Source: a virus
Lineage: Duplodnaviria > Heunggongvirae > Uroviricota > Caudoviricetes
Length of the DNA: 17,248 nt
Virus record (IMG/VR): IMGVR_UViG_2645727991_000020
Direction: 5' to 3' (one strand)
A program made the position numbers and the translations under genes. The notes below the pieces were generated by a model. That model saw only the letters and a program-made list of their open reading frames with translations, searched no databases and was not told the origin of the DNA. Each line of letters begins with the position of its first letter. The first letter of the stretch is position 1. Of this stretch, positions 1,291 to 14,704 are shown in pieces.

Positions 1291-2622
1291 TTATTTTGAG
1301 TGAATTATCACCTTGTTTTTTCCGGTTCTTTTGGCTTGATATAACGCTTTATCGGCATTGACTAACATTTCAGATGGGCTGAGATTATTCTCTTTTGAAG
1401 TAAAGCAACCAATGCTGACAGTTATTTTCTCAGGTCCATGCGATAATAATTTTTCCGAGCATTGCTCTTCAATGTTTTTTCTGATTCGCTCTGCAATTGA
1501 TAGCAAGAGCTTTTGAGTATTACCTTTAATGATAATACCGAACTCCTCACCGCCTAAGCGCCCTAATACATCCTCTTTCCTGATGGATTTTTTTATTATT
1601 CTGGTAACCATTACTATGACTTGATCACCCATATGATGCCCCCATTTGTCATTGATGCTTTTGAAACTGTCAATATCTAACATTATTACTGAGAAATCAT
1701 GGTGTTTTGATATATTCTTCAATGAGTCAATAAAGTATCTTCTATTGTATGTATTCGTTAGTGGATCATGAATTGCCATATGATTAGCATGATTTAATTT
1801 CCTGAAAACATAATACATGAGTGTTGAAATGATATAAATCATTGATATCAATTCAAGAAATTTTGTCATGTACCATGCAGGATGGGATTTATCAATAAAA
1901 TACAATAAAATTAGATTATTGCATACTGACACTATACTAATAAGTATTATACACAACCATATTTTTGAGTAATTACGTATGCTGATGCATGAGCTGATAA
2001 GTAATACAAGCCAAAATACTGATATTATTTTGGTATACACGATATTCCACGTCGGCAAATGACGATTCAGCGAGTATTGTATAATATTAAGGCTATATTT
2101 TATATTGTCACTGCTTAGATTTTTTGCTACAAACGGAGTAATAAAAAGAATTAATATTGACAAAACAACAATTATTATGTTTCTTTTATCTTCTAAAACA
2201 CTTTTATTTTTAACATTGGTGGAATAAACAGCCAGAAAGATTATAGATATAAAGCTGAACTGACGGAATAGATAATATATTGCGATATCATTTGATTTCT
2301 GATAGATTGTAGATAAATCGTTACCTAACGGAGATAAAGAAATAATAGCCACTTCTAATAAATAATACGTGTTGCTCAAAAACGCGAATGAAAGAATTAA
2401 GAGATAACTTTGTCTCTGATTAGAAACATAGTAAAGCAATAGAAAAATAAAAATCATCAGGTTTATGAAAAAAAGCCCAATAATGAAAATACTATAACTT
2501 ATTTGTGTTGTTTGTGTTATGTATATTCCATTATTTTCATGCAGTAACAAAAATATAATAGAGATGCATGAAAATAAAAAGATGAAGATTTTTATTTTTA
2601 TAGGTACCTGGTTGATAATCAT
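1291..2622 (-). CDS. membrane-anchored GGDEF-domain diguanylate cyclase with a multi-pass N-terminal domain
   Basis: 443-aa ORF. The C-terminal ~170 aa carry the GGDEF signature (RLGGEEFGI) with an RxxD I-site (RKED) shortly upstream. The N-terminal ~270 aa are strongly hydrophobic, consistent with about 6-8 transmembrane helices. The gene is visibly far more AT-rich than its flanks (GC not computed), so a long open frame here is unlikely by chance. Possibly related to prophage-borne DGCs such as DgcX of enteroaggregative E. coli, but I cannot confirm that from memory. Confidence 0.85.
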   Translation of the reverse strand: MIINQVPIKIKIFIFLFSCISIIFLLLHENNGIYITQTTQISYSIFIIGLFFINLMIFIFLLLYYVSNQRQSYLLILSFAFLSNTYYLLEVAIISLSPLGNDLSTIYQKSNDIAIYYLFRQFSFISIIFLAVYSTNVKNKSVLEDKRNIIIVVLSILILFITPFVAKNLSSDNIKYSLNIIQYSLNRHLPTWNIVYTKIISVFWLVLLISSCISIRNYSKIWLCIILISIVSVCNNLILLYFIDKSHPAWYMTKFLELISMIYIISTLMYYVFRKLNHANHMAIHDPLTNTYNRRYFIDSLKNISKHHDFSVIMLDIDSFKSINDKWGHHMGDQVIVMVTRIIKKSIRKEDVLGRLGGEEFGIIIKGNTQKLLLSIAERIRKNIEEQCSEKLLSHGPEKITVSIGCFTSKENNLSPSEMLVNADKALYQAKRTGKNKVIIHSK

Positions 2623-2872
2623 GTACGCACCTGAGAATGATATATATATAATATGTATCGCTACAAATAACGATAATTTCTTACTGGTGATAGTATACTA
2701 TTATTCTGGTTAATCGCTGTCAAATTGATGATTTTGGTTAGTATTGCAATAGCGAAGAGTTTGATCCGGTAAGACTGGCTAGGCAAGGCTATACCAAAAA
2801 ATCAGTGTAGGTTCAGAAAACGATGCACCATACAATCATCAATAATTTCAAATTGTCCATTGTGCATAAATC

Positions 2873-2915
2873 ATAAAGAAAACCGCAGCACGTCGTATGC
2901 AAGAACGTGCTGCGG
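2873..2915 (-). terminator. putative rho-independent terminator (minus strand)
   Basis: Perfect 11-bp inverted repeat ccgcagcacgt / acgtgctgcgg (2883-2893 / 2905-2915) with an 11-nt loop. On the minus strand it is followed by TTTTCTTT (plus 2873-2880). Confidence 0.45.
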
Positions 2916-3156
2916 TTGGCTGGTGAACTTCCGATAGTGCGGGTGTTGAATGATTTCCAGCTGCTACCGATTTTACATATTTTTGCCTGAGAGGATTTGA
3001 ACCGCCTCCACAGACTCTACATCACAGATAACCACTGTCACGAGGACTGTTAGTGCTGTGAGTTCAACGGGGCGATGTACGCTACCTTTAATCAAGAGGG
3101 AGAGGTACGTTGCTAAGATGAGTTTATATTCATCAACTAAGTGCAGATCAGCGAAT

Positions 3157-3200
3157 AACTAAAACTTGGCTGTCTGTGACAGGAACATCGATTGACAGCC
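3157..3200 (-). terminator. possible terminator hairpin downstream of the 1,182-aa gene
   Basis: Inverted repeat ggctgtc (3168-3174) / gacagcc (3194-3200) about 30 bp past the stop codon, followed on the minus strand by a weak U-rich tract (AAGUUUUAGUU). Weaker than the 2883-2915 hairpin. Confidence 0.3.
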
Positions 3201-3226
3201 AGTTTCTCCACATTTAGGTGTTTAGA

Positions 3227-6200
3227 TTAATCATCCTCTCCAATATTTAGATTGCTGATAACCTGTGCAGCTTCGTGGTCATAGCCAACCGCTAAATCTC
3301 TTAAGGTAACGGCGAATCGCTGAAAACCAGCGTTTTCCACTTCTTCTGCTTTTGCCCGGAACTGGTCAGCTAGCTCTCTCTCAGGTTTTCCTGTTGGATC
3401 AACACAATAAACACCTCGTGAGTTGTAGGCTCCTGTCATGTAGCCCCTGCGCATACTCTCAGCATCTCGATCGTTGAGAGCAGCTGCGACCTCTCGGTTT
3501 ATCCACAAGCCATTCGGATCGGAGGGAGTATAAATCAAGACTTCACCAACTTTGCTGAGTGCAACGTCCAGGTGACCTGATGCCGTAGAACCCTCCTTAA
3601 CTTTCTGAAGCCATTCAGTAAAGCGTTCTCCGTTGAACGTCCCATTTGATTGGCTTCCTGGCGGTGTCTTCCAGTTGTACAAAAGAGTCCAGGCATTTTT
3701 TGCGATTGCTTTCAATTCATCTGTTGGTTCACTTGTCATATTGTCTTCTTTGTCAGAACGATAAATGAGTTGGATTACTTCGCAGAAAAATTCTGGATCA
3801 TTAGCCATTTTATTCTCAAGGAACTTAGGCACAGCATCTTGGTGACCATCGAGCAATGGAAGGTAAGCCCACTCGATCTGAAAAAGATTATCCGGATTCA
3901 CTTTGGGATCAGTCTGAAGAAATTGGATAAGGGTAGTTATGTTGTAACCATCCATGTTGGAGCTAGATTCGTTAGTTGAAGTGGCAGCAAGCAAAGCGCG
4001 GATACACTGTTCAGTATCGATTGGCTGCTTTGTCTGATGCATCCTGCACAGGCAATTGATTGCCGCAAGTGGTCTGCCATGATCAATCAGCTTATCGATG
4101 GCACTAGTAAGATCACCTTCACCCAGGTCAGGATTTGCATCGGTGCGAGCCCAATATTCGTTCTCGGAAGCTTGAGGATAATGAGAGACTCGGGTCCAGG
4201 TCTCCTTGTTAAAAGGCAGATAAGCAAAGAATTGGCCTAACTGTTCAGGAGTCCAGTCAGCTTTATCCAGATTGTCGAACCACTCCCAGCCTTTGAGATA
4301 GAAACGCTTCCAAATAAAAGCGCTTACCAATGCCTTATACTTATTTTCTTTTGTATTGAGGAAACGGGGCAAAAGAAGTTTTTCGAACACATCATCGTTG
4401 ATAGTGCCGAGTACACTTCCTATTTGATGGGGCGCAGAAACGTGATCTGCAAATCGAATAACGCCTTCTGCGCCATCTTGCCTAAGAATTTCTGATATTG
4501 CGGATTCGCGCCTTGATTCGAGTTTATTTCTCCGTTCTTCCCAATCGCCATTTTCTAAGTAAAGATCAAAATCTCGATTTGAAAAAAGGTGCTGATATAA
4601 GTTGAATGGATTGGTAGGTGCCAGTTGCTCGGCAACATTTTCGATTTTGGTCAGCAGATCATCAGGTAAAGCCCAATTAGCATTAGAGAATCGCCGATGT
4701 TTATTTGCGAATCGATGAAGATGATCCCAAATTACAACTCGCTGCTCTTCATTAAGACAATTAATTGTTTCCGAAGAGAGGTGCTTAAGAAGATGTTCGA
4801 AAGCAGGAGATGGAAGGCTATCAAAATTATCAATCAACAAGGTAAGGCGTTCGATATCTTCTCCAGCGTTTTTGACGGCAAGCTCAGCATAAAAAGATGT
4901 CTGCAACCAGTAATCCTGATTAGTCACTTTGCTTTCCCAATCATCTGGGATTATTCGGCGCCAAGAGGGCTTGTGTGACCCAGAAGAGGTTTGATGGTGA
5001 CCGGGTAGAAGCTGGACGAGTAAATTCCAGGCAATGTCAGGCCATTCCTGCAAGATGACGTTGACTGCAACTTTTCGTTTTTCTATAGATGCCAGCGTTT
5101 GCGGAAACCACGGTAATAATATAGTAGTAAGCGAGTTAGATGGTCGATTAGCCCACTTGCCCCCAGGATCGTGGCTGGCAAGTTCGGCCAGTACAACACA
5201 GACGCGTACTAGGTATTGCTCATCCCAGGCTAATTCTTCTAGAGCCCATAGCAGTCCTGTCAGATAATTACCACCAGTGATACCATTTACTTCTTGAGAA
5301 AAAAGCTCATCAAATACACAAGGAGTCTGACGCATTGCCTTCTCAACTGCATCAAGAAATTTTGCAGGAGCTGCTTCAGCCAAAGTTGGTAGCAAACCGT
5401 TTAGGCTACCCCATAAAACCCAGTTTGCATCAGTCAAAATTGTATGTATTGCGACGTTAACGGAAGTTTCAGCATTCCCCTGAGAGCAGTTAACGCAAAC
5501 CTCTGGCCGACTCCCGATTATGGCTAAACCCTCTGCTATACCTTGTCGCAGCGTGGATGAAAACTTCAGCACCTTACCATGAATACTAGCAGCGTAACGC
5601 TCTTCAGCAGGTAATTCGAAAGCAGGGTCTGGCTCTTTGAGTACGGAAATCGCGGAAGACTTAAACAATTCAAGATTCTGATCAAAAATGCGGGATCCAA
5701 GAAGACTCCATAGCTCCATTCGATTTGTTACTTTCCAAATGCCGTTTTTTAGGGACAAAGGACTGTCTGGGCTATGTAAAATCTCTCGAGCCTTCCTTAG
5801 CCATTCGTCATAGCTGATACCAAGCAATTGGGTTAGTACATTTCGGTCACACTCATTTTTATCATTCCATTGCCCAATCAACACTGCTAAGGCTAAATAA
5901 GAGGCATCTGGGTGGTGAGTCCAGTCGGTTTTGACTACCGGTTGTACTAACCTCAACTTCTCAGGTATTTCAGCAATAACCCTTTGTTTGAAAACATCTA
6001 AAAGATCTTCAGGTAGCTTACTTGAAATGATAGTGCCAGCATCTTTATTCCAAGTTTGTACGATATCAACTATCCGCGACCAAACCCACTGAGGATACTG
6101 TTGATGGAATTGCGCTATGTGGGAGTGCAGCAAAGAAAGGACGACGCCTGATTCATTACCCAGATCGTACCCTAGTAAATGGAAATGGTTCAAAAAGTCA

Positions 6201-6775
6201 TAAAGCTCATCGTTTGTTAAATCGTTCCCACTGTTTGCCATCTTCAGATGAAACTGGATGGTCTCCAGTTTCTCAGTACTTTTAGGCGGGCTGAACTTGG
6301 CTTTTTGAACGTTCCTCAAAAATTCATCGACTGTTTTTGTGTGTCTAGCCTGATTCAATAACCAGAGCACATTGTGTGTATCGGTCGAACTGAGCGGACC
6401 GGTGATCAGTGCAATAACATCCTTGTTCTTGGTAAACAAGTCAGGATTGTTGAAATCGTTCCAAGCAGCCTGTATAACTTCCCCAAGTATCGCATTACCT
6501 TGCGTAAATGAAATAGAATGCTTTATTTGTCCTAATAGCTTCCGTTTTTCATTTCTGTTGAAATCTTTAACAACGACGATCAAGTCGTCGGTATCAAAAC
6601 CATCAATCTTGCCCTGGAGATTTATCTCCACTATGGGCCAACAAGGAAGACAAGGTGCATTACCGCCTGTTAGCATTAGAGCAACAAAAGACGCTTGGAC
6701 ATGTGCTTCAAAATGAACACCGCCTCCGCCTGTAGAAAAAGGATTACTCAAATTTTTTTTATTTGTCATTAACAA
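3227..6775 (-). CDS. large hypothetical protein (~1,180 aa), function unknown; candidate phage-defence or effector cargo
   Basis: Uninterrupted 3.5-kb ORF. The track start at 6775 is TTG; the first ATG is at 6769 (MTNKKNLSNPF...). Stop TAA at 3227-3229. I found no Walker A GxxxxGK[ST] and no other catalytic signature I can name. The N-terminus has a Gly-rich loop (STGGGGVHFEAH), a CxxC (CLPC) and an acidic-hydrophobic strand (GFDTDDLIVVVKD); a second CxxC (CVNC) lies near residue 430; the remainder is Trp/Leu-rich and probably helical. Product is unassigned. Confidence 0.85.
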   Translation of the reverse strand: MLMTNKKNLSNPFSTGGGGVHFEAHVQASFVALMLTGGNAPCLPCWPIVEINLQGKIDGFDTDDLIVVVKDFNRNEKRKLLGQIKHSISFTQGNAILGEVIQAAWNDFNNPDLFTKNKDVIALITGPLSSTDTHNVLWLLNQARHTKTVDEFLRNVQKAKFSPPKSTEKLETIQFHLKMANSGNDLTNDELYDFLNHFHLLGYDLGNESGVVLSLLHSHIAQFHQQYPQWVWSRIVDIVQTWNKDAGTIISSKLPEDLLDVFKQRVIAEIPEKLRLVQPVVKTDWTHHPDASYLALAVLIGQWNDKNECDRNVLTQLLGISYDEWLRKAREILHSPDSPLSLKNGIWKVTNRMELWSLLGSRIFDQNLELFKSSAISVLKEPDPAFELPAEERYAASIHGKVLKFSSTLRQGIAEGLAIIGSRPEVCVNCSQGNAETSVNVAIHTILTDANWVLWGSLNGLLPTLAEAAPAKFLDAVEKAMRQTPCVFDELFSQEVNGITGGNYLTGLLWALEELAWDEQYLVRVCVVLAELASHDPGGKWANRPSNSLTTILLPWFPQTLASIEKRKVAVNVILQEWPDIAWNLLVQLLPGHHQTSSGSHKPSWRRIIPDDWESKVTNQDYWLQTSFYAELAVKNAGEDIERLTLLIDNFDSLPSPAFEHLLKHLSSETINCLNEEQRVVIWDHLHRFANKHRRFSNANWALPDDLLTKIENVAEQLAPTNPFNLYQHLFSNRDFDLYLENGDWEERRNKLESRRESAISEILRQDGAEGVIRFADHVSAPHQIGSVLGTINDDVFEKLLLPRFLNTKENKYKALVSAFIWKRFYLKGWEWFDNLDKADWTPEQLGQFFAYLPFNKETWTRVSHYPQASENEYWARTDANPDLGEGDLTSAIDKLIDHGRPLAAINCLCRMHQTKQPIDTEQCIRALLAATSTNESSSNMDGYNITTLIQFLQTDPKVNPDNLFQIEWAYLPLLDGHQDAVPKFLENKMANDPEFFCEVIQLIYRSDKEDNMTSEPTDELKAIAKNAWTLLYNWKTPPGSQSNGTFNGERFTEWLQKVKEGSTASGHLDVALSKVGEVLIYTPSDPNGLWINREVAAALNDRDAESMRRGYMTGAYNSRGVYCVDPTGKPERELADQFRAKAEEVENAGFQRFAVTLRDLAVGYDHEAAQVISNLNIGEDD

Positions 6776-6914
6776 TCACATCCACATTTTGATTACGAAT
6801 AGATGAAAAAGAAGAGCACTCATACTTCAGAACTTATTCCACCTATATCTTTTAAAGACACTGTTATGCCTAGCATTTACGTAGATTAGCTAGCTCTCGG
6901 GTAATGACTCCAAC

Positions 6915-7418
6915 TTACTGATAGTGTTTTATGTTCAGATAATGCCCGATGACCTTGTCATGCAACTCCACCGATTTTGAGAACGACAGTGACTTCCGTC
7001 CCAGCCTTGCCAGATGTTGTCTCAGATTCAGATTATGTCGCTCAATGCGCTGCGTATATCGCTTGCTGATAACGTGCAGCTTTCCCTTCAGGCGTGATTC
7101 ATACAGCGGCCAGCCATCCGTCATCCATACCACGACCTCAAAGGCCGACAGCAGGCTCAGAAGACGCTCCAGTGTGGCCAGAGTGCGTTCACCGAAGACG
7201 TGCGCCACAACCGTCCTCCGTATCCTGTCATACGCGTAAAACAGCCAGCGCTGACGTGATTTAGCACCGACGTAGCCCCACTGTTCGTCCATTTCAGCGC
7301 AGACAATCACATCACTGCCCGGTTGTATGCGCGAGGTTACCGACTGCGGCCTGAGTTTTTTAAGTGACGTAAAACCGTGTTGAGGCCAACGCCCATAATG
7401 CGTGCACTGGCGCGACAT
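6915..7418 (-). CDS. insB: IS1 transposase InsB (expressed natively as an InsAB' frameshift fusion)
   Basis: 167-aa product ...[58 protein letters not shown]... matches IS1 InsB with a few substitutions. It overlaps the 3' end of insA as expected for programmed -1 frameshifting. Confidence 0.9.
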
Positions 7419-7612
7419 CCGACGCCATTCATGGCCATATCAATGATTTTCTGGTGCGTACCGGGCTGAGAGGCGGTGTAAGTGAACTGTAGTTGCCATG
7501 TTTTACGGCAATGAGAGCAGAGATAGCGCTGATGTCCGGCAGTGCTTTTGCCGTTACGCACCACGCCTTCAGTAGCGGAGCAGGAAGGACATCTGATGGA
7601 AATGGAAGCCAC
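7337..7612 (-). CDS. insA: IS1 protein InsA (zinc-finger DNA-binding regulator)
   Basis: 91-aa product [68 protein letters not shown]... matches IS1 InsA. Confidence 0.9.
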
Positions 7613-7667
7613 GCAAGCACCTTAAAATCACCATCATACACTAAATCAGTAAGTTGGCAGCATTACC

Positions 7668-9283
7668 AAATCATCAATAACGAAAGCTGGTTATGTTCTC
7701 CGTTAAGCGTTATCGGTACTGGCAGAGACGATAAAGACCAGTATCTCATTCTTCGCTGGCTGTCGTTTGGTTCTGAAACGCCGACAACCGCTGCCATTCC
7801 ACTGGCTGATATTGGTGAACGTGAAGGATGGCGCACACTTAAAGCTGGTGGGGTAAATGTCACGACCAAAAGCAGCCTCAGAGCAATACTGGCAGACTGG
7901 CTACAACGCAGTGGCTCTCGTGAATTGTGGCGTGTTGCTCATGCCACTGGCTGGCAATGCGGAGCGTACATCATGCCTGATGGGGAAATCATCGGAACAC
8001 CTGAAAATCCTGTGCTGTTCAGCGGGAGAAGCTCAGCCGCAGCCGGATATACCGTCTCAGGGAGCGCGAAAAGCTGGCGTGATAACGTGGCGCGTCTGGC
8101 CTTTGGTAACTATTCAATGATGACCGGGATCGGCGCAGCACTGGCAGCGCCATTGATTGGGCTGGTGGGCGCTGACGGGTTCGGCATTCATTTCTATGAG
8201 CAGTCGAGCGCAGGTAAGACCACCACGGCAAACGTGGCGAGCAGCTTATACGGCAACCCTGATTTACTGCGGCTGACGTGGTACGGAACCGCGCTGGGGC
8301 TGGCAAATGAGGCCGCCGCCCACAATGACGGACTAATGCCGCTTGATGAAGTTGGTCAGGGCGCTGATCCTGTCAGCGTTTCACAGTCTGCCTATGCGTT
8401 ATTTAACGGTGTAGGGAAACTGCAAGGCGCTAAAGATGGTGGAAACCGGGATCTAAAACGCTGGCGTACAGTGGCAATCAGCACCGGAGAAATGGATTTA
8501 GAAACATTTATCGCTACTTCCGGGCGAAAAACCAAAGCCGGGCAACTGGTGCGACTGCTGAATATTCCGTTGAGTAAAGCAGTACGCTTTCACGATTACC
8601 AGAACGGAAAACAGCACGCAGACGCACTGAAAGACGCTTACCAGCATCACCACGGCGCAGCCGGGCGTGAGTGGATTAAATGGCTGGCAGACCACCAGCA
8701 ACAGGCTATTAAAACCGTTCGTGATTGCGAAAGCAGATGGAGAAACCTGATCCCATCCGATTATGGTGAGCAGGTTCACCGTGTAGCCGCGCGATTTGCC
8801 ATTCTGGAGGCCGCATTGCTGTTAGGCGAGGTTGTAACAGGCTGGGATGCTCAGACATGCCGTGATGCGATACAGCACAGCTATAACGCATGGTTGCGCG
8901 AGTTCGGCACAGGTAACAAAGAACATCAGCAGATTATTGAACAAACGGAGGCATTTCTTAATGCCTATGGGCTTAGCCGTTTTGCACCATTTCCATACAG
9001 CCCGGCAGATTTGCCCATCAAAGATTTAGCCGGATACCGTCAGCGTGGAGAACATGACGAAAGCCCAATGATTTTCTACACATTCCCGGCCACATTTGAA
9101 AAGGAGATCGCATGTGGTTTCAACGCAAAACAGTTTGCTGAAGTGTTGAAAAAAGCCGGGATGCTAACCCCACCAAACAGCGGTCGTGGATACCAAAGAA
9201 AATCACCACGTATTCAGGGACGACAAATAAACGTTTATGTACTCAATTACCAGCCAGGAGATTATAACTCATCTGAAGAATGA
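7668..9283 (+). CDS. P-loop NTPase replication protein of mobile-element type (tentatively DUF927 family), 5'-truncated by IS1; probable pseudogene
   Basis: The track ORF 7493..9283 begins inside IS1. Native sequence starts at the IS1 boundary (7668) with no in-frame ATG until 7973 (IMPDGEIIG), yet the intervening 100 codons read as genuine protein. Walker A-like YEQSSAGKTTT and Walker B-like GLMPLDEVGQ are present. The gene ends about 20 bp before iteron cluster A. Confidence 0.6.
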
Positions 9284-9301
9284 GCTTCTTCATGTGCGTA
9301 G

Positions 9302-9422
9302 AAAAGGTGTTGGTTCAGTTGGTTCAGTTGGTTCAATTTATAAAGGGTATTGTTTTATAAGGATTTTATTCTTTTTATTGAACCAACACTGAACCAACAA
9401 CACGGTATTTTGAACCAACACA
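9302..9422. repeat. iteron cluster A (origin-like)
   Basis: Three tandem 9-bp repeats ttggttcag / ttggttcag / ttggttcaa (about 9310-9336), an AT-rich spacer of roughly 40 bp, then three inverted copies tgaaccaaca (9379-9420). Confidence 0.7.
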
Positions 9423-9469
9423 ATGTGACTGAATTGATGCGCACAACACCTGGCTGGCATCAGAGAGTG

Positions 9470-9546
9470 TTTTACGAGACTTTCGTAAAATCCTGTGTAC
9501 AAGGGCGTGACGTTTTTGAAAGTGAGCACTACGAAATTTTCGTAGT
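9470..9546. promoter_or_regulatory. pair of TACGA-N5-TCGTA palindromes (candidate operator sites)
   Basis: ttttacgaGACTTtcgtaaaa (9470-9490) and actacgaaATTTtcgtagt (9528-9546) share identical half-sites TACGA / TCGTA with 5-bp spacers, centres about 57 bp apart. Confidence 0.4.
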
Positions 9547-9737
9547 TCAAAAAACAGCCTCTGAGAAGTTGTTATGCCTGTTCAGCAAACCATCCGCATA
9601 GCTGATCGCGAATCAAATTACCAATGGAGCCAGAAGCAAGGGCAGAACTGAAAAGCGCCTGCCGTGAAGAGTAATGCGACACCATAAATATAGTTTTTAG
9701 AGTCCATAAAAAACCTGTCAAAACCTGACACACAGAA

Positions 9738-9773
9738 CGACGCCACCAGCTACTGAGCGGTGGCATTTTTTTG
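9738..9773 (+). terminator. putative rho-independent terminator (plus strand)
   Basis: GC-rich stem gccacc (9742-9747) / ggtggc (9759-9764) followed by a run of seven T (9766-9772). It sits between the iteron/operator region and the downstream operon. Confidence 0.45.
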
Positions 9774-9867
9774 TGCTATTTGTTTCATATTCTGCAATTA
9801 CGATGATGAATATTGCGATTTGTGAAACTATAATAACTGTTGTTTTATACAGTTATAAGGGGGCGTT

Positions 9868-10029
9868 ATGGCTATTTCAGTAAAGCCGGTATTGATAAGT
9901 GAGAAGCAAATGGAAGCGATAAAGAAAATTCAGGAAGAGCAGCGTAAAAAATCAGGAATTGGAGTAGCGCCAACTCTGCATGAAATTGCACGAGGGTTAA
10001 TAGATAAGGCGCTGGCAGGCTGTATGTGA
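9868..10029 (+). CDS. small hypothetical protein (53 aa), possibly a ribbon-helix-helix-like DNA-binding protein
   Basis: Not in the supplied track (below its length cut-off). ATG at 9868 with a strong Shine-Dalgarno AAGGGGG 6 nt upstream; product MAISVKPVLISEKQMEAIKKIQEEQRKKSGIGVAPTLHEIARGLIDKALAGCM; TGA at 10027-10029. It sits 16 bp upstream of the four-gene operon. The RHH assignment is a guess from the strand-then-helix pattern. Confidence 0.45.
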   Translation: MAISVKPVLISEKQMEAIKKIQEEQRKKSGIGVAPTLHEIARGLIDKALAGCM

Positions 10030-10045
10030 AAATGGATGGCATCGC

Positions 10046-10507
10046 ATGGAACTAAAATTTATTGATAACCCTGTGCGATTACAGGCCTTTCTTAACGAGC
10101 CAGGCAATACCGAAAATATTGTTGAGCCGGGGCACACGTACTACATCAAGCCTGATGCGGTATATCTCGGCATCTACGAAGGATTAGTGCTGGCTGGCGT
10201 TCATGAAGTGCGTAACTTCTGGCATAGCGTTGTTGAATGCCATGCGGTGTACGACCCCGGATTCCGTGGTGAATATGCACTGCAAGGGCATCGATTATTC
10301 TGCAAATGGCTTCTCGAAAACTCACCATTCCTTAACAGCATCACTATGGTTCCTGACACCACGAAATATGGACGGGCAATTATCCGTTTGCTTGGCGCTA
10401 CCCGTGTTGGTCACCTTGATGATGCTTATATCAGATGTGGTAAACCCGTCGGCGTAACGCTTTATCAGTTAACTCGGCAACAATATAAGGAATTCAGCGA
10501 ATGTTAA
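10046..10507 (+). CDS. hypothetical protein (153 aa), first gene of a translationally coupled operon
   Basis: ATG at 10046; its stop (TAA 10505-10507) overlaps the next start (ATGTTAA). No motif recognised. Confidence 0.7.
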   Translation: MELKFIDNPVRLQAFLNEPGNTENIVEPGHTYYIKPDAVYLGIYEGLVLAGVHEVRNFWHSVVECHAVYDPGFRGEYALQGHRLFCKWLLENSPFLNSITMVPDTTKYGRAIIRLLGATRVGHLDDAYIRCGKPVGVTLYQLTRQQYKEFSEC

Positions 10508-11178
10508 TTACCCATATAGCTCATAAACATCTCAATCGTGCCGTATACGAAAAAGGCGGTGATGGTGGTGCCTCTAAAGCTCAGGCGAAGGCCCAGCAGC
10601 AGGCAATTGATTTGCAGCGCGAGCAGTGGAATACGGTGATGAATAATCTCAAGCCGTATGCAGAAGTCGGATTGCCTGCTTTACAACAACTGCAAGGACT
10701 GATGACTCTGGAAGGGCAGAATAAAGCCGCGAATGATTTCTTTGGTTCTGGTTTATATAAAACACAGGCAGATCAGGCCCGTTATCAGAACCTTGTCTCA
10801 GCAGAAGCTACCGGGGGGCTTGGCTCAACAGCTACCAGTAACCAGTTATCTTCCATTGCGCCCATGCTTTATAACAATTGGCTCAGTGGGCAAATGCAAA
10901 ATTATGGAAACCTGCTAAATGTCGGGATGAATGCGGCATCAGGGCAGGCAACAGCAGGGCAAAACTACGCCAATAATACCGGGCAACTCTTGCAGGGGCT
11001 TGGCGCTATTCGTGCAGGTCAGGCGCAGCAGCCATCCAGTCTTGCGCGTGGTATTGGTGGGGCGGCATCAGGCGCTTTAGCGGGTGCGCAACTTGGTTCC
11101 GTTGTTCCGGGTATAGGTAATGTCGCCGGGGCTATTGGTGGTGGGCTTATTGGTCTTGTTGGGGGGCTTGGATTCTAA
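10501..11178 (+). CDS. hypothetical protein (225 aa) with Gly-rich hydrophobic C-terminus; possible virion ejection/injection protein (P22 gp7-like by size and position)
   Basis: Start overlaps the upstream stop; C-terminus GIGGAASGALAGAQLGSVVPGIGNVAGAIGGGLIGLVGGLGF is membrane-active-like; Gln/Ala-rich low-complexity middle. The homology call is inference only. Confidence 0.7.
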   Translation: MLITHIAHKHLNRAVYEKGGDGGASKAQAKAQQQAIDLQREQWNTVMNNLKPYAEVGLPALQQLQGLMTLEGQNKAANDFFGSGLYKTQADQARYQNLVSAEATGGLGSTATSNQLSSIAPMLYNNWLSGQMQNYGNLLNVGMNAASGQATAGQNYANNTGQLLQGLGAIRAGQAQQPSSLARGIGGAASGALAGAQLGSVVPGIGNVAGAIGGGLIGLVGGLGF

Positions 11179-12599
11179 TGGCGACATGGCAACTTGGCGG
11201 GCTGCCTAGCATGGCACCGCAAAATGATAATGCTCCTCGTTCTTCCGTTCCTCAGCCTGTGCAGTATCAGCAGCACCCAAACGTAGGTTTAATGGCGCTA
11301 CAGGGGCTAAGAGGCGTTGCTGAGATTAATCAGCAGGCACGTCAACAACAGCGTAAAGCAGAGTTTCAGAAAGCATATGCCGGGGCTTTTGAGTCTGGAG
11401 ACAGAAACAAAATGCGCAGTCTTATTTCTGAGTATCCAGAAGAATTTGAAAGCGTTCAGAAAGGGATGGGCTTTATTGATGACGACCAGAGAAATTCTAT
11501 TGGTCATCTTGCGACTAGTGCTCAAATCGCATCTTCGCTCGGAACTGGGGCATTTGGAAAATTCATAGCAGATAACGAAGATGAAATGCGTCGCTTGGGA
11601 ATTTCTCCTGAGTCTGTTGCCGAAATGCATGTTAATGATCCACAGGGATTCCAGCGGCTTGCTGGTAGTATGGCACTGTTTTCTCTCGGTCATGAGAAGT
11701 ATTTCGATATCAAAGATCAAATGGAAGGTCGGGATATTGAGCGTGGCAAGTTGGCAGAGACAATCCGCAGCAATCAGGCTGGCGAAGCACTTCAGGCGAG
11801 AGGGCAGGATATTAGCCGAGCAAATGCGTTAACGTCAGCATATGCACCAACAGCAGCAATGCAGAATTACAATCAGTACGCTCAAATGTTAAAGGCGGAT
11901 CCAGAGGGGGCGGCGGCATTTGCGGCAGCGGCTGGAATTAATACAAACGCCAAAAAATTAATGAGTGTTAGAGAAAACGATGATGGCACTGTCACAAAAT
12001 ACTACACAGACGGAAGTGAAGAGCAGGGAAAACTAAACCAGCCAATATCTGGAGATGGGTTTCGTCCAATAGCTTTGCCAACAGCCCAAAAGATCATGGA
12101 AAAGTCGCCAGAAGGGGCTAAAAAAGCTGCTGGATTTGCATACAGGGTTAGGGATGCTCTTGATTCAATAGATACACTGAAAGACCAGCTTAGCCCACAG
12201 CGAGTGGCGATCATTAATAATGCTTTGGGTAATGGGACGCTGGCTAACTTAACGCTCAGCCCAACAGAGCAGCAATACGTTGTTAATGCTAATGACGCAA
12301 TAATGGCAATACTCCGTCAGGAAACAGGGGCAGCTATCGCACCTGCTGAAATGTCAAAATATTATCAAATGTATTTCCCTCAGCCTGGCGACTCCACAAA
12401 AACCATTGATACCAAGCGCCGGAAGATGGAAAACCAGTTCAATTCGCTGAAAGCTGCTTCTGGTCGAGCTTATGATGCTTTGCGGGTTATTTCAGCAGTT
12501 GACAGAGGAACTTCTTCTTCGTCGCAGACATTGCCGCAATCTGAGCAGGTATCACAGCCAGCAGCCAGCAGTAACTTTTCTTCACTATGGGGTGATTAA
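11178..12599 (+). CDS. hypothetical protein (473 aa); possible virion ejection protein (P22 gp20-like by size and position)
   Basis: TAATG overlap with the upstream gene; hydrophilic, Ala/Gln/Glu-rich. The size matches my recollection of gp20 at about 471 aa. Inference only. Confidence 0.7.
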   Translation: MATWQLGGLPSMAPQNDNAPRSSVPQPVQYQQHPNVGLMALQGLRGVAEINQQARQQQRKAEFQKAYAGAFESGDRNKMRSLISEYPEEFESVQKGMGFIDDDQRNSIGHLATSAQIASSLGTGAFGKFIADNEDEMRRLGISPESVAEMHVNDPQGFQRLAGSMALFSLGHEKYFDIKDQMEGRDIERGKLAETIRSNQAGEALQARGQDISRANALTSAYAPTAAMQNYNQYAQMLKADPEGAAAFAAAAGINTNAKKLMSVRENDDGTVTKYYTDGSEEQGKLNQPISGDGFRPIALPTAQKIMEKSPEGAKKAAGFAYRVRDALDSIDTLKDQLSPQRVAIINNALGNGTLANLTLSPTEQQYVVNANDAIMAILRQETGAAIAPAEMSKYYQMYFPQPGDSTKTIDTKRRKMENQFNSLKAASGRAYDALRVISAVDRGTSSSSQTLPQSEQVSQPAASSNFSSLWGD

Positions 12600-14704
12600 T
12601 GGCTAAAGCATGGAAAGATGTTATCGCCTCTCCACAGTATCAGGCGTTAGCACCAGAACAAAAAGCGCAGGCTCAGGAGCAATACTTCAATGAAGTCGTT
12701 GCCCCGCAAGCCGGAGAAAGTGTAGAGCAGGCTAAGCAGGCTTTTTATGCTGCCTATCCACTACCATCAACGAATGAAATAGACCGATCCCAATCAGCAA
12801 CTCAAAATATTCAACATACATCATCTGATAATTCTCTTGCGTCAGGGTATGCAAAGTTAGCTACTCAGCAAAGAGAGGGGCTTGAGCGTTCAGCAGAACA
12901 GGGAGCCAGTCTTGGGGCTGCGATGCGCGATGCTATAACAGGCGAAAGCCGAATGACTCCAGAGATGGAGAGACTGCAAAATGTCACCTCTGCCCCAGAA
13001 TTGAACTCACTAAGCATGGATGCCCTAAAGGCTGGATGGTCTCAACTTTTCGGCTCTGACGCGTCTCAGGAAAAGATTCTTCAGGGAATGGGGGCGACAT
13101 TAAGGCAGGATGAGAAGGGGAATACTATCGTTTCTCTGCCATCAGGTGATTATGCCCTGAACAAGCCGGGTTTATCACCGCAAGACCTGACTTCGTTTCT
13201 TGCTAATGCGTTGGCGTTTACACCAGTGGGCAGGGCTGGAACGGTGCTTGGTGCCATAGGAAAATCAGCAGCTACAGATTTAGCACTACAGGGAGCCACC
13301 AGCCTTGCTGGTGGAGAAGATATTGATCCGTTACAAACGGTAATTTCTGCTGGCATTGGTGGTATTGGTAAGGGGCTGGAAAATACAGCGAGTGCGGTTT
13401 CGAGGGCTGTTCGTGGTGATATGTCGCCTGAAGCAAAGGCTGCTGTCGACTTTGCATCGGAAAGAAATCTGCCGTTAATGACCAGTGACATGCTGAAAGA
13501 TAAAACCTTTATGCAGAGTCAGGCTCAGACATTAGGCGAAAGAGTTCCTTTTTTTGGAACCGGTAAGAATCGGCTGAATCAACAACAAGCACGAGAAAAT
13601 TTAGTCAGAACATTTAGCGATGGTCTGGGTGGCATTTCTGATAAACAGCTTTATGAATCTGCGACTAAAGGGCAACAAAAATTCATTGAGGCAGCAGGAA
13701 AGCGATATAACCGCATAATTGACGCTATGGGGGATACCCCTGTCGATCTCTCAAACACGGTAAAAGCTATCGACAATCAGATTGCCGTGTTAAGCCGCCC
13801 GGGCAAATCTCAGGATAGAGCCGCGGTAAAAGTCTTGCAGCAATTTAAAGACGATATCACCAGCGGACCAAATGACCTGCGTCTGGCGAGGGAAAACAGA
13901 ACCGATCTTCGAAAGCGATTTATGGCGTCATCTGACACTGTTGATAAAGATACGCTCCAGAAAGCCAGCGATATTATCTACAAGGCATATACGGCGGATA
14001 TGAAAAAAGCCGTAGCCAAAAATCTTGGAGCAGACGAAGCCATTAATATGGCAAGGGTTGATCGCTCATGGTCTAAATTCAATGATATGATGGGAAGAAC
14101 GCGCGTTCAAAAGGCAATAGCCAGCGGCAAGGCCACGCCTGAGGATGTAACAAAACTCGTTTTTAGCCAAAGCCCATCAGAACGTTCTCAGCTTTACAGG
14201 CTTCTGGATGACAATGGTAGGCAAAACGCACGAGCAGCCATAGTTCAGAATGCTGTAGATAAGGCGACTGATCCGTCTGGAAATATCAGTGTTGAGAAGT
14301 TTATTAATGCGTTACACCGGAACAGGAAGCAATCAGCAACTTTCTTTAAAGGCGTACATGGAAAGGAACTGGACGGCGTTATTAAATACCTCAACGATAC
14401 AAGACACGCGGCAAAAGCGAACGTTCAAAACTTAAATGGTCAGCAGCTTTATGGATTGTTAGTTGGTGGTGGCATCATAAACGCAGCAGTATTAGCGGGG
14501 ATGCTAAAAACGGCTGCGTTTGTTGTTCCTGCTGCTGGTGCCGTAGGCGGAGCAGCGAAGGCATACGAAAGCCCTGTTATACGAAATGCCTTGTTACGTC
14601 TGGCAAATACGCCAAAAGGTAGCACAGCATATGACAGAGCGATCAGTACGGTCACACAATCGCTCACCAGAGTCGCACAGGCATCACAAAAAGAAGCTCA
14701 ATAA
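12599..14704 (+). CDS. hypothetical protein (701 aa) with C-terminal hydrophobic segment; possible virion ejection protein (P22 gp16-like by position)
   Basis: TAATG overlap with the upstream gene; a hydrophobic stretch LYGLLVGGGIINAAVLAGMLKTAAFVVPAAGAVGGAA lies near the C-terminus; stop TAA at 14702-14704 is followed by a hairpin and T-run. Confidence 0.7.
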   Translation: MAKAWKDVIASPQYQALAPEQKAQAQEQYFNEVVAPQAGESVEQAKQAFYAAYPLPSTNEIDRSQSATQNIQHTSSDNSLASGYAKLATQQREGLERSAEQGASLGAAMRDAITGESRMTPEMERLQNVTSAPELNSLSMDALKAGWSQLFGSDASQEKILQGMGATLRQDEKGNTIVSLPSGDYALNKPGLSPQDLTSFLANALAFTPVGRAGTVLGAIGKSAATDLALQGATSLAGGEDIDPLQTVISAGIGGIGKGLENTASAVSRAVRGDMSPEAKAAVDFASERNLPLMTSDMLKDKTFMQSQAQTLGERVPFFGTGKNRLNQQQARENLVRTFSDGLGGISDKQLYESATKGQQKFIEAAGKRYNRIIDAMGDTPVDLSNTVKAIDNQIAVLSRPGKSQDRAAVKVLQQFKDDITSGPNDLRLARENRTDLRKRFMASSDTVDKDTLQKASDIIYKAYTADMKKAVAKNLGADEAINMARVDRSWSKFNDMMGRTRVQKAIASGKATPEDVTKLVFSQSPSERSQLYRLLDDNGRQNARAAIVQNAVDKATDPSGNISVEKFINALHRNRKQSATFFKGVHGKELDGVIKYLNDTRHAAKANVQNLNGQQLYGLLVGGGIINAAVLAGMLKTAAFVVPAAGAVGGAAKAYESPVIRNALLRLANTPKGSTAYDRAISTVTQSLTRVAQASQKEAQ

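Follow-up and report, generated by a model that had tools for sequence, protein, structure and literature searches.

A prophage-borne protein with a predicted nuclease head and a solenoid body as a candidate single-protein immune sensor-effector from a large unannotated family

The viral DNA stretch held in IMG/VR as IMGVR_UViG_2645727991_000020 (Caudoviricetes; 17,248 nucleotides, analyzed as a whole and called the window here) raises the question of what a single, very large gene does behind the tail-fiber genes of a prophage. The open reading frame (ORF) at positions 3227-6775 of the minus strand is open throughout and counts 1,182 codons from a TTG, as expected from the 3.5-kb uninterrupted ORF of the original prediction, though translation probably begins slightly further in. 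The likely start codon is the first in-frame ATG (6767-6769), which sets the coding sequence at 3227-6769 (stop at 3227-3229) and gives a protein of 1,180 amino acids (aa). This product agrees with RefSeq WP_000182525.1, a 'hypothetical protein' whose RefSeq coding sequence maps to 3227-6769, and has the length of nearly all homologues. Regular-expression searches of the 1,180-aa protein found no Walker A, GxGK or GGDEF motif, and the protein contains no transmembrane-like stretch or signal. Its composition is rich in leucine (11.5%) and tryptophan (3.1%), so that the sequence-based description of a Trp/Leu-rich protein with no Walker A or GGDEF signature holds. The protein is very probably an immune or conflict protein.

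The N-terminal head (aa 1-285; 5915-6769, minus strand) combines a predicted nuclease core (aa ~14-143; 6341-6730) with a helical subdomain. An AlphaFold2 model based on 40 sequences of 34-51% identity reached a predicted local distance difference test score (pLDDT) of 83.2 over the full length; the head modeled alone reached 90.2, with a predicted template modeling score of 0.86. In the model, aa 16-143 form an alpha-beta-beta-beta-alpha-beta-alpha core of the PD-(D/E)xK nuclease type, and the nearest solved structures to the head are Avs3, Cap4, LmuA and HamA. The alpha-beta-beta-beta-alpha-beta arrangement, a restriction-endonuclease fold closest to Cap4, Avs3 and LmuA, is that of a Cap4-type (DUF4297-like) nuclease domain. 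The active-site residues fall where the predicted strands place them: helix 1 carries the glutamate E21, strand 2 opens with the acidic residues D61/D62, and strand 3 contains Q81-x-K83, a (D/E/Q)xK motif. Among the 34-51%-identical homologues, E21, D61 and D62 are invariant, G17 is invariant or nearly so, and Q81 and K83 are at least 90% conserved. As modeled, the head is a Cap4-type PD-(D/E)xK DNA endonuclease whose E...DD...QxK site is intact and conserved; its fold alone places it in that class. No Pfam or NCBIfam nuclease family matched the head at E <= 1, and its profile gave no match among PDB sequences. The Gly-rich loop (GGGG), the CLPC and the acidic-then-hydrophobic strand (GFDTDDLIVVVKD) from which a small nuclease-like head had been proposed are all present in the N-terminus, and the modeled fold bears that proposal out. 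The CxxC itself does not survive as a feature of the head: C43 of CLPC varies among homologues, so a zinc site is unlikely and the motif was ruled out as a metal site.

Behind the head lies a flexible linker (aa ~262-288; 5906-5986, minus strand), with low pLDDT at aa 270-285 and a sequence that ranks with the most variable in the protein; it marks the site of head exchange or gene split. The remainder (aa 289-1180; 3230-5905, minus strand) is predicted to fold as one continuous, all-alpha, HEAT/ARM-like solenoid of ~890 aa, a putative sensor scaffold that fits the ~1,000-aa helical-repeat, sensor-like body anticipated earlier. Its structure matches are only generic HEAT/ARM proteins (CAND1, karyopherins, CRM1 and designed repeats). 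The body model contains no alpha/beta NTPase domain and the body has no P-loop match in Pfam; no nucleic-acid- or nucleotide-binding domain was detected by Pfam, in the model or by structure search.

Conservation along the protein is highest in the nuclease core, at aa 441-600 and at aa 1081-1160. In the conservation profile, the most conserved block of the body (aa 441-600; 4970-5449, minus strand) peaks at aa 521-560 with the motif DPGGxWxNRPxNSL..LLPWxPQT, and E511, S546, W554 and T558 are invariant in this region. The conserved C-terminal block (aa 1041-1160; 3290-3649, minus strand; pLDDT 85-94) reads ESGHL..DPxGLWI..NSRGV.VDPxGxPE.. The most variable part of the body (aa 601-960; 3890-4969, minus strand) has an entropy of 2.3-2.6 bits, with lower pLDDT at aa 730-980, and we infer that it is the candidate recognition surface. 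Across the whole family alignment, indels are nearly absent and the gap fraction is near zero, with ~70% identity between phyla and lengths of 1,176-1,183 aa. Such uniformity is unusual for a putative immune receptor and points to a broad and very recent horizontal spread, to tight structural constraint, or to the two together.

The protein had been regarded as an orphan, a description that its family size overturns. A word-indexed search returned more than 1,900 relatives, the top 120 of which are 68-100% identical, ~1,180 aa long and distributed over Enterobacterales, Vibrio, Microbulbifer, Chlorobium, Planctomycetes and Acidithiobacillus. An exhaustive search of representatives at 50% identity found 6,665 clusters, 3,111 of them at E <= 1e-30; a profile-based homologue search added no diversity. 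Homologues also occur in metagenome-assembled genomes (MAGs) of Phycisphaerae and of Kaiserbacteria, a member of the Candidate Phyla Radiation (CPR). The Candidatus Kaiserbacteria copy (locus L017, 515-4045) is full length at 46% identity and lies on a contig of merely 4.4 kb; a large defense-like gene is unusual in a reduced CPR genome. All public names of the relatives are 'hypothetical protein', and searches of Pfam, NCBIfam, PADLOC and PDB sequences with the whole protein gave no family match. The phage protein family phrog_18693, whose function is not annotated, matches the body at aa 282-1168 (E = 6e-119). Related loci were collected with a single-protein query, which yielded five genome loci and five viral loci.

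The body is retained in this family while the head changes. In about one third of the 150 best representatives, the N-terminus is different or absent, and the junction between alternative heads and the body falls at query residue ~253-292. By Pfam, these heads are PNP_UDP_1, SIR2_2, GT4-conflict, FRG, Schlafen/AlbA_2, DUF4062, TIR_2 and Metallophos; one further head is HEPN-like, as judged from a weak DUF4145 match and an RNxxxH motif seen by eye. PADLOC matches on these sister proteins are restricted to the heads (pAgo-type SIR2, bSEFIR, PN-superfamily effector and PDC-S15) and never fall on the body. An exchangeable effector on a constant scaffold is a hallmark of prokaryotic immune sensors, and the domain matches indicate that this family exchanges its heads among classical defense effectors. 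The commonest alternative head, of ~360 aa (P0206, P0220, P0228 and similar), carries the motif ...QPGxDG...SxWEIGTG...KAT..FVFVTPR... and has no match in Pfam or PADLOC; the phage-encoded phrog_18693 seems to carry this head (profile positions 1-353).

Head and body also occur as separate genes. Body-only relatives of ~860 aa overlap a preceding ORF of 321 aa with 50% identity to the query head, which marks the two parts as separable units. At locus L026, for example, the 321-aa Cap4-type head ORF (5046-6011) overlaps the 863-aa body ORF (6001-8592) by 11 bp; L027-L029 carry a split version as well. About 10 representative clusters are body-only, all beginning at residue ~319, a little beyond the linker. 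This split form could be a genuine two-gene version or the product of recurrent frameshifts.

The genomic contexts of the homologues are mostly those of mobile or defensive DNA. Neighbors include a ParE/RHH toxin-antitoxin in Pectobacterium, CcdAB, ArdC and RVT_1 in Dickeya, and SymE, Fic and HsdR in Alloalcanivorax. The Kosakonia homologue lies in a CP4-like island beside a type I restriction-modification system with an embedded AAA ATPase, and that of Microbulbifer in a P4-like AlpA/DUF927 element. In an Aeromonas P2-like prophage, the homologue directly follows a co-directional CI/S24 repressor and just precedes the integrase, and so sits in the lysogeny module. A SIR2-headed sister overlaps hsdS inside a type I restriction-modification operon, with an adjoining DUF4238 gene. 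The Vibrio homologue directly adjoins Dsr1, with GmrSD_N/AAA_15 genes nearby. In Vibrio parahaemolyticus (L005), it occupies 10001-13552, 220 bp downstream of the co-directional Dsr1 gene (5970-9779); this 1,269-aa SIR2 neighbor was considered as a paralogue and rejected once identified as Dsr1, and the tandem pair consists of two unrelated single-protein systems, each with an effector and a helical body. When 131 neighboring ORFs were run through PADLOC as a batch, restriction enzymes of types I and IV were recovered together with AriA/PtuA/Old-type ATPases. Prophages, islands and defense-adjacent positions account for most of the ~12 independent contexts, a small sample with no background control that includes a few non-defense settings. 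No partner gene is conserved across these loci; small ORFs after the gene at two loci were considered as candidates and proved mutually unrelated, and the window has no ORF there.

In Escherichia coli the gene is prophage cargo. Every E. coli carrier examined has it at the right end of a lambdoid prophage, where it comes last, behind J-lom-stf-tfa, and occupies the opposite strand. It is rare, being present in 8 of 5,426 complete E. coli genomes, and deposited phage genomes contain no nucleotide-level match to it. A ~4-kb module (2873-6899) is common to all E. coli carriers at 99.6-99.8% identity. Its downstream flank contains an element of ~135 bp (2880-3015) that matches positions 24162-24290 of lambda (J02459) and is found in 212 phage records, Stx phages included. 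In carriers free of IS1, the element occurs again ~700 bp upstream, forming direct repeats that are 88-89% identical around the module (L012, 6656-6790 and 11246-11385; L023, 3056-3187). The sequence arrangement makes the module look like an exchangeable cassette between repeats, and the element may serve both as a recombination site for cassette exchange and as a bidirectional terminator. The placement downstream of tfa, as non-essential cargo in an equivalent of the lambda b-region, had been proposed from the window itself; it recurs among carriers, and 'b-region moron slot' is literally correct because the flanking DNA is lambda b-region sequence.

The protein is probably a prophage-carried, single-protein sensor-effector whose output would most plausibly be abortive infection. 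At rest, the solenoid would hold the nuclease head in an inactive form. Once a phage infects the cell, a trigger of phage origin, most probably one of its proteins, would bind the solenoid, and a conformational change or oligomerization would bring the heads together, as in Avs3/Avs7, Cap4 and LmuA. The active nuclease would then degrade DNA, halting phage replication and aborting the infection. The prophage would express the gene as cargo that benefits the lysogen, and in sister proteins the same sensor body would fire SIR2, TIR, HEPN-like, nucleosidase or other heads. This model is drawn by analogy with Avs3/Avs7, with their sequestered Cap4 heads, and with the NTPase-free sensor-effector coupling of the Dsr type; Dsr-type proteins couple a sensor to an effector without an NTPase. 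The nuclease head, the solenoid, the b-region cargo position, the head exchange and the lack of a covering model are all consistent with the candidate undescribed single-gene defense protein of the original prediction, a function predicted here from sequence and modeling.

Several points weigh against the sensor-effector model. The head fails Pfam nuclease models at E <= 1. No oligomerization or nucleoside triphosphate switch is identifiable in the protein, and the step that couples sensor to effector is pure inference. For a receptor expected to keep pace with fast-evolving phage proteins, the body changes unusually little and is unusually free of indels. Some homologues lie in a polysaccharide cluster or between housekeeping genes, and the neighborhood analysis comprises ~12 loci with no background control. 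No defense database model or paper could be tied to the family, and the defense function is a prediction from sequence and a modeled structure. Native expression in this window is uncertain, since most of the DNA originally upstream of the gene has been lost to IS1.

The conservation of the body favors the main rival explanation, in which the protein is likewise defensive and the solenoid senses DNA ends or damage, a nucleotide signal, or the state of a guarded host factor. With ~70% identity across phyla and hardly any indels, the body is more readily reconciled with a conserved ligand than with fast-evolving phage proteins. Nucleic acids are among the ligands that HEAT solenoids can bind, and Hachiman and Lamassu, systems with structurally related nucleases, are reported to sense DNA state. 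Against this stand the lack of any detected nucleic-acid- or nucleotide-binding domain and the fact that the known single-chain proteins with an effector and a repeat sensor, Avs and Dsr1, bind phage proteins. We consider this alternative unlikely, if the strongest of those weighed. An inter-element competition or addiction module, which would mainly exclude rival plasmids, satellites or prophages or stabilize its own element and would not chiefly counter lytic phage, has a smaller chance of being correct. Carriage on prophages and on P4-like and CP4-like islands, beside toxin-antitoxin and antirestriction genes, would suit such a role, but no cognate immunity or antitoxin gene is conserved beside the gene at the homologue loci examined, and the repertoire of exchanged heads is one of anti-phage effectors.

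A housekeeping or phage-lifecycle nuclease scaffold, serving for example recombination, repair or the processing of DNA and playing no part in immunity, is improbable. PD-(D/E)xK nucleases and HEAT scaffolds are known in repair machinery and, as noted, some homologues sit between housekeeping genes; yet just 8 of 5,426 E. coli genomes carry the gene, which has no nucleotide match in deposited phage genomes and lies outside the phage structural and replication modules, and an exchange of heads for SIR2, TIR or PNP makes no sense for repair. A secreted virulence effector or polymorphic toxin delivered into other cells, raised earlier as an alternative and suggested by the slot after the tail-fiber genes (its identity verified here), which carries type III secretion effectors in pathogenic E. 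coli, is scarcely credible for a protein with an N-terminal enzymatic domain, no signal or transmembrane segment, no adjacent immunity gene or secretion-system linkage at the homologue loci examined, and homologues in Chlorobium, Planctomycetes, Phycisphaerae and a CPR Kaiserbacteria MAG.

The DNA around the gene in the window bears on its expression. The remaining native upstream region is 130 bp long (6770-6899, minus strand) and is ended by an IS1 copy (6900-7667), which directly adjoins the module and connects it with a P22-like remnant of unrelated origin. In other carriers, IS1 lies 189 bp farther from the gene or is absent, and the IS1-free carriers retain ~0.7-1 kb upstream of the gene. 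A strict scan of the 130 bp found no sigma-70 consensus promoter. The gene's own upstream region, proposed at 6776-6899, is therefore present as upstream DNA, at 6770-6899, but is shortened by IS1 and has no consensus promoter. The downstream hairpins noted previously were both recovered on the gene's own strand. The first (3167-3201, minus strand) has an 8-bp stem ~26 nucleotides past the stop, followed by a T-rich stretch. The second is a strong, terminator-like hairpin (2862-2918, minus strand) with a 14-bp stem at 2880-2918 (-24 kcal/mol; z = -5.1), followed by the U-rich UUUUCUUUAU; the ~135-bp b-region element contains this hairpin and a conserved tail. A consensus terminator scan overlooked the 14-bp-stem hairpin, probably because its loop exceeds the 8-nucleotide limit of the scan.

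The window as a whole is a mosaic of elements. It opens with a tail-fiber C-terminus (52-633) and tfa (633-1217), followed by a low-GC gene for a MASE4-GGDEF diguanylate cyclase (1291-2622, minus strand; GC content ~28-31%) inserted between tfa and the module. The cyclase is present in 787 of 5,426 E. coli genomes, as opposed to 8 of 5,426 for the large gene, and is independent cargo; it may be the prophage-associated DgcX of enteroaggregative E. coli/O104:H4. Beyond IS1 lie a 5'-truncated DUF927/TOPRIM primase gene and P22-type ejection-protein genes. At the IS1 junction (6900-9283), the listed ORF of the truncated primase begins within IS1. This junction is absent from every complete E. coli genome and represents a separate rearrangement, because the other E. 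coli carriers have IS1 189 bp farther away or none. The P22-like ejection block (10046-14704; DUF2824, gp7, a gp20-type injectosome translocase and a 701-aa ORF) is part of another element, one found widely in E. coli at 99% identity.

A broader reading of the family is possible, and we put it forward tentatively: the ~890-aa solenoid may define a large, pan-bacterial superfamily of NTPase-independent pattern-recognition receptors, a universal chassis for sensing that is Avs-like in scope, that fire at least 10 unrelated effector types without a nucleotide switch and monitor a deeply conserved feature of infection or guard a host factor. The effector types counted are nuclease, SIR2, TIR, HEPN-like, PNP, FRG, Schlafen, DUF4062, GT4 and metallophosphatase. 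If this superfamily reading were true, the rigidity of the body (~70% identity across phyla, hardly any indels) would mean that it does not track a variable phage protein. Confirmation of the immune sensor-effector role itself would add a family of 6,665 clusters, from Enterobacteria to CPR, to the catalogue of bacterial immune receptors, give thousands of 'hypothetical proteins' an annotation name, and imply that a protein made of an effector and a repeat sensor can function without the STAND ATPase thought to drive Avs/NLR activation. The head-swapping series is a natural experiment on how one scaffold couples to many effectors, and the E. coli copy, as a prophage cargo gene between lambda b-region repeats, offers a tractable entry.

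Among known defense systems, none has a model in PADLOC-DB 2.0, Pfam or NCBIfam that covers this protein. No description of the family was found in PADLOC-DB 2.0, Pfam, NCBIfam, PHROG annotations, the DefensePredictor text and supplements, the modularity-network paper or the open-access literature. A prior description may exist elsewhere, as the literature covered was open-access and newer DefenseFinder models lay outside the search. The phage family phrog_18693, homologous in the body, has a different N-terminal region of ~350 aa.

The protein shares with Avs/STAND proteins an exchangeable N-terminal effector and a C-terminal repeat sensor in one chain. The Cap4 heads of Avs3 and Avs7 are sequestered in the apo state and become active upon trigger-induced tetramerization (10.64898/2026.01.04.697583). 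Unlike the protein described here, in which neither a Walker A motif nor an alpha/beta body domain is present, Avs3 and Avs7 possess a STAND NTPase (Walker A/B; nucleotide-binding, helical and winged-helix domains, NBD-HD-WHD). Moreover, the Avs repeat region consists of tetratricopeptide repeats, whereas the body here is a HEAT/ARM-like solenoid without sequence similarity to Avs. The sole link to Avs is one marginal PADLOC match of a sister protein to PD-Lambda-4_A. This match was rejected as a sign of kinship and treated as repeat similarity, because PD-lambda-4 corresponds to Avs8, which is a STAND NTPase, and this protein lacks any NTPase.

Dsr1 and DSR2, which are defense-associated sirtuins, share the logic of the protein: they are likewise NTPase-free and join an N-terminal effector to a helical body of ~900 aa in one chain; the SIR2-headed sisters have a Dsr-like overall size of ~1,250 aa. 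The Dsr head is a SIR2 NADase, whereas the head here is a nuclease. BLASTP detected no homology to Dsr bodies, hhalign against Dsr1 gave a probability of 0.4%, and the PADLOC Dsr models matched neither this protein nor its SIR2 sister. Among systems with a related nuclease, CBASS Cap4, Lamassu LmuA and Hachiman HamA need partners (CD-NTase and SAVED, LmuB/C and the HamB helicase, respectively), whereas no neighbor is conserved beside the protein here, which has an ~890-aa body within the same chain. Upx (Gao et al. 2020) and GAPS1 are, as here, single-gene PD-(D/E)xK effectors, and Upx is of similar length (1,212 aa; PDB 9wuf), but neither a Upx model nor its structure matched this protein. 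From its sequence relatives and predicted structure, the protein is most likely an immune protein that unites sensor and effector in one chain, built on a very widespread sensor scaffold that had lacked annotation.

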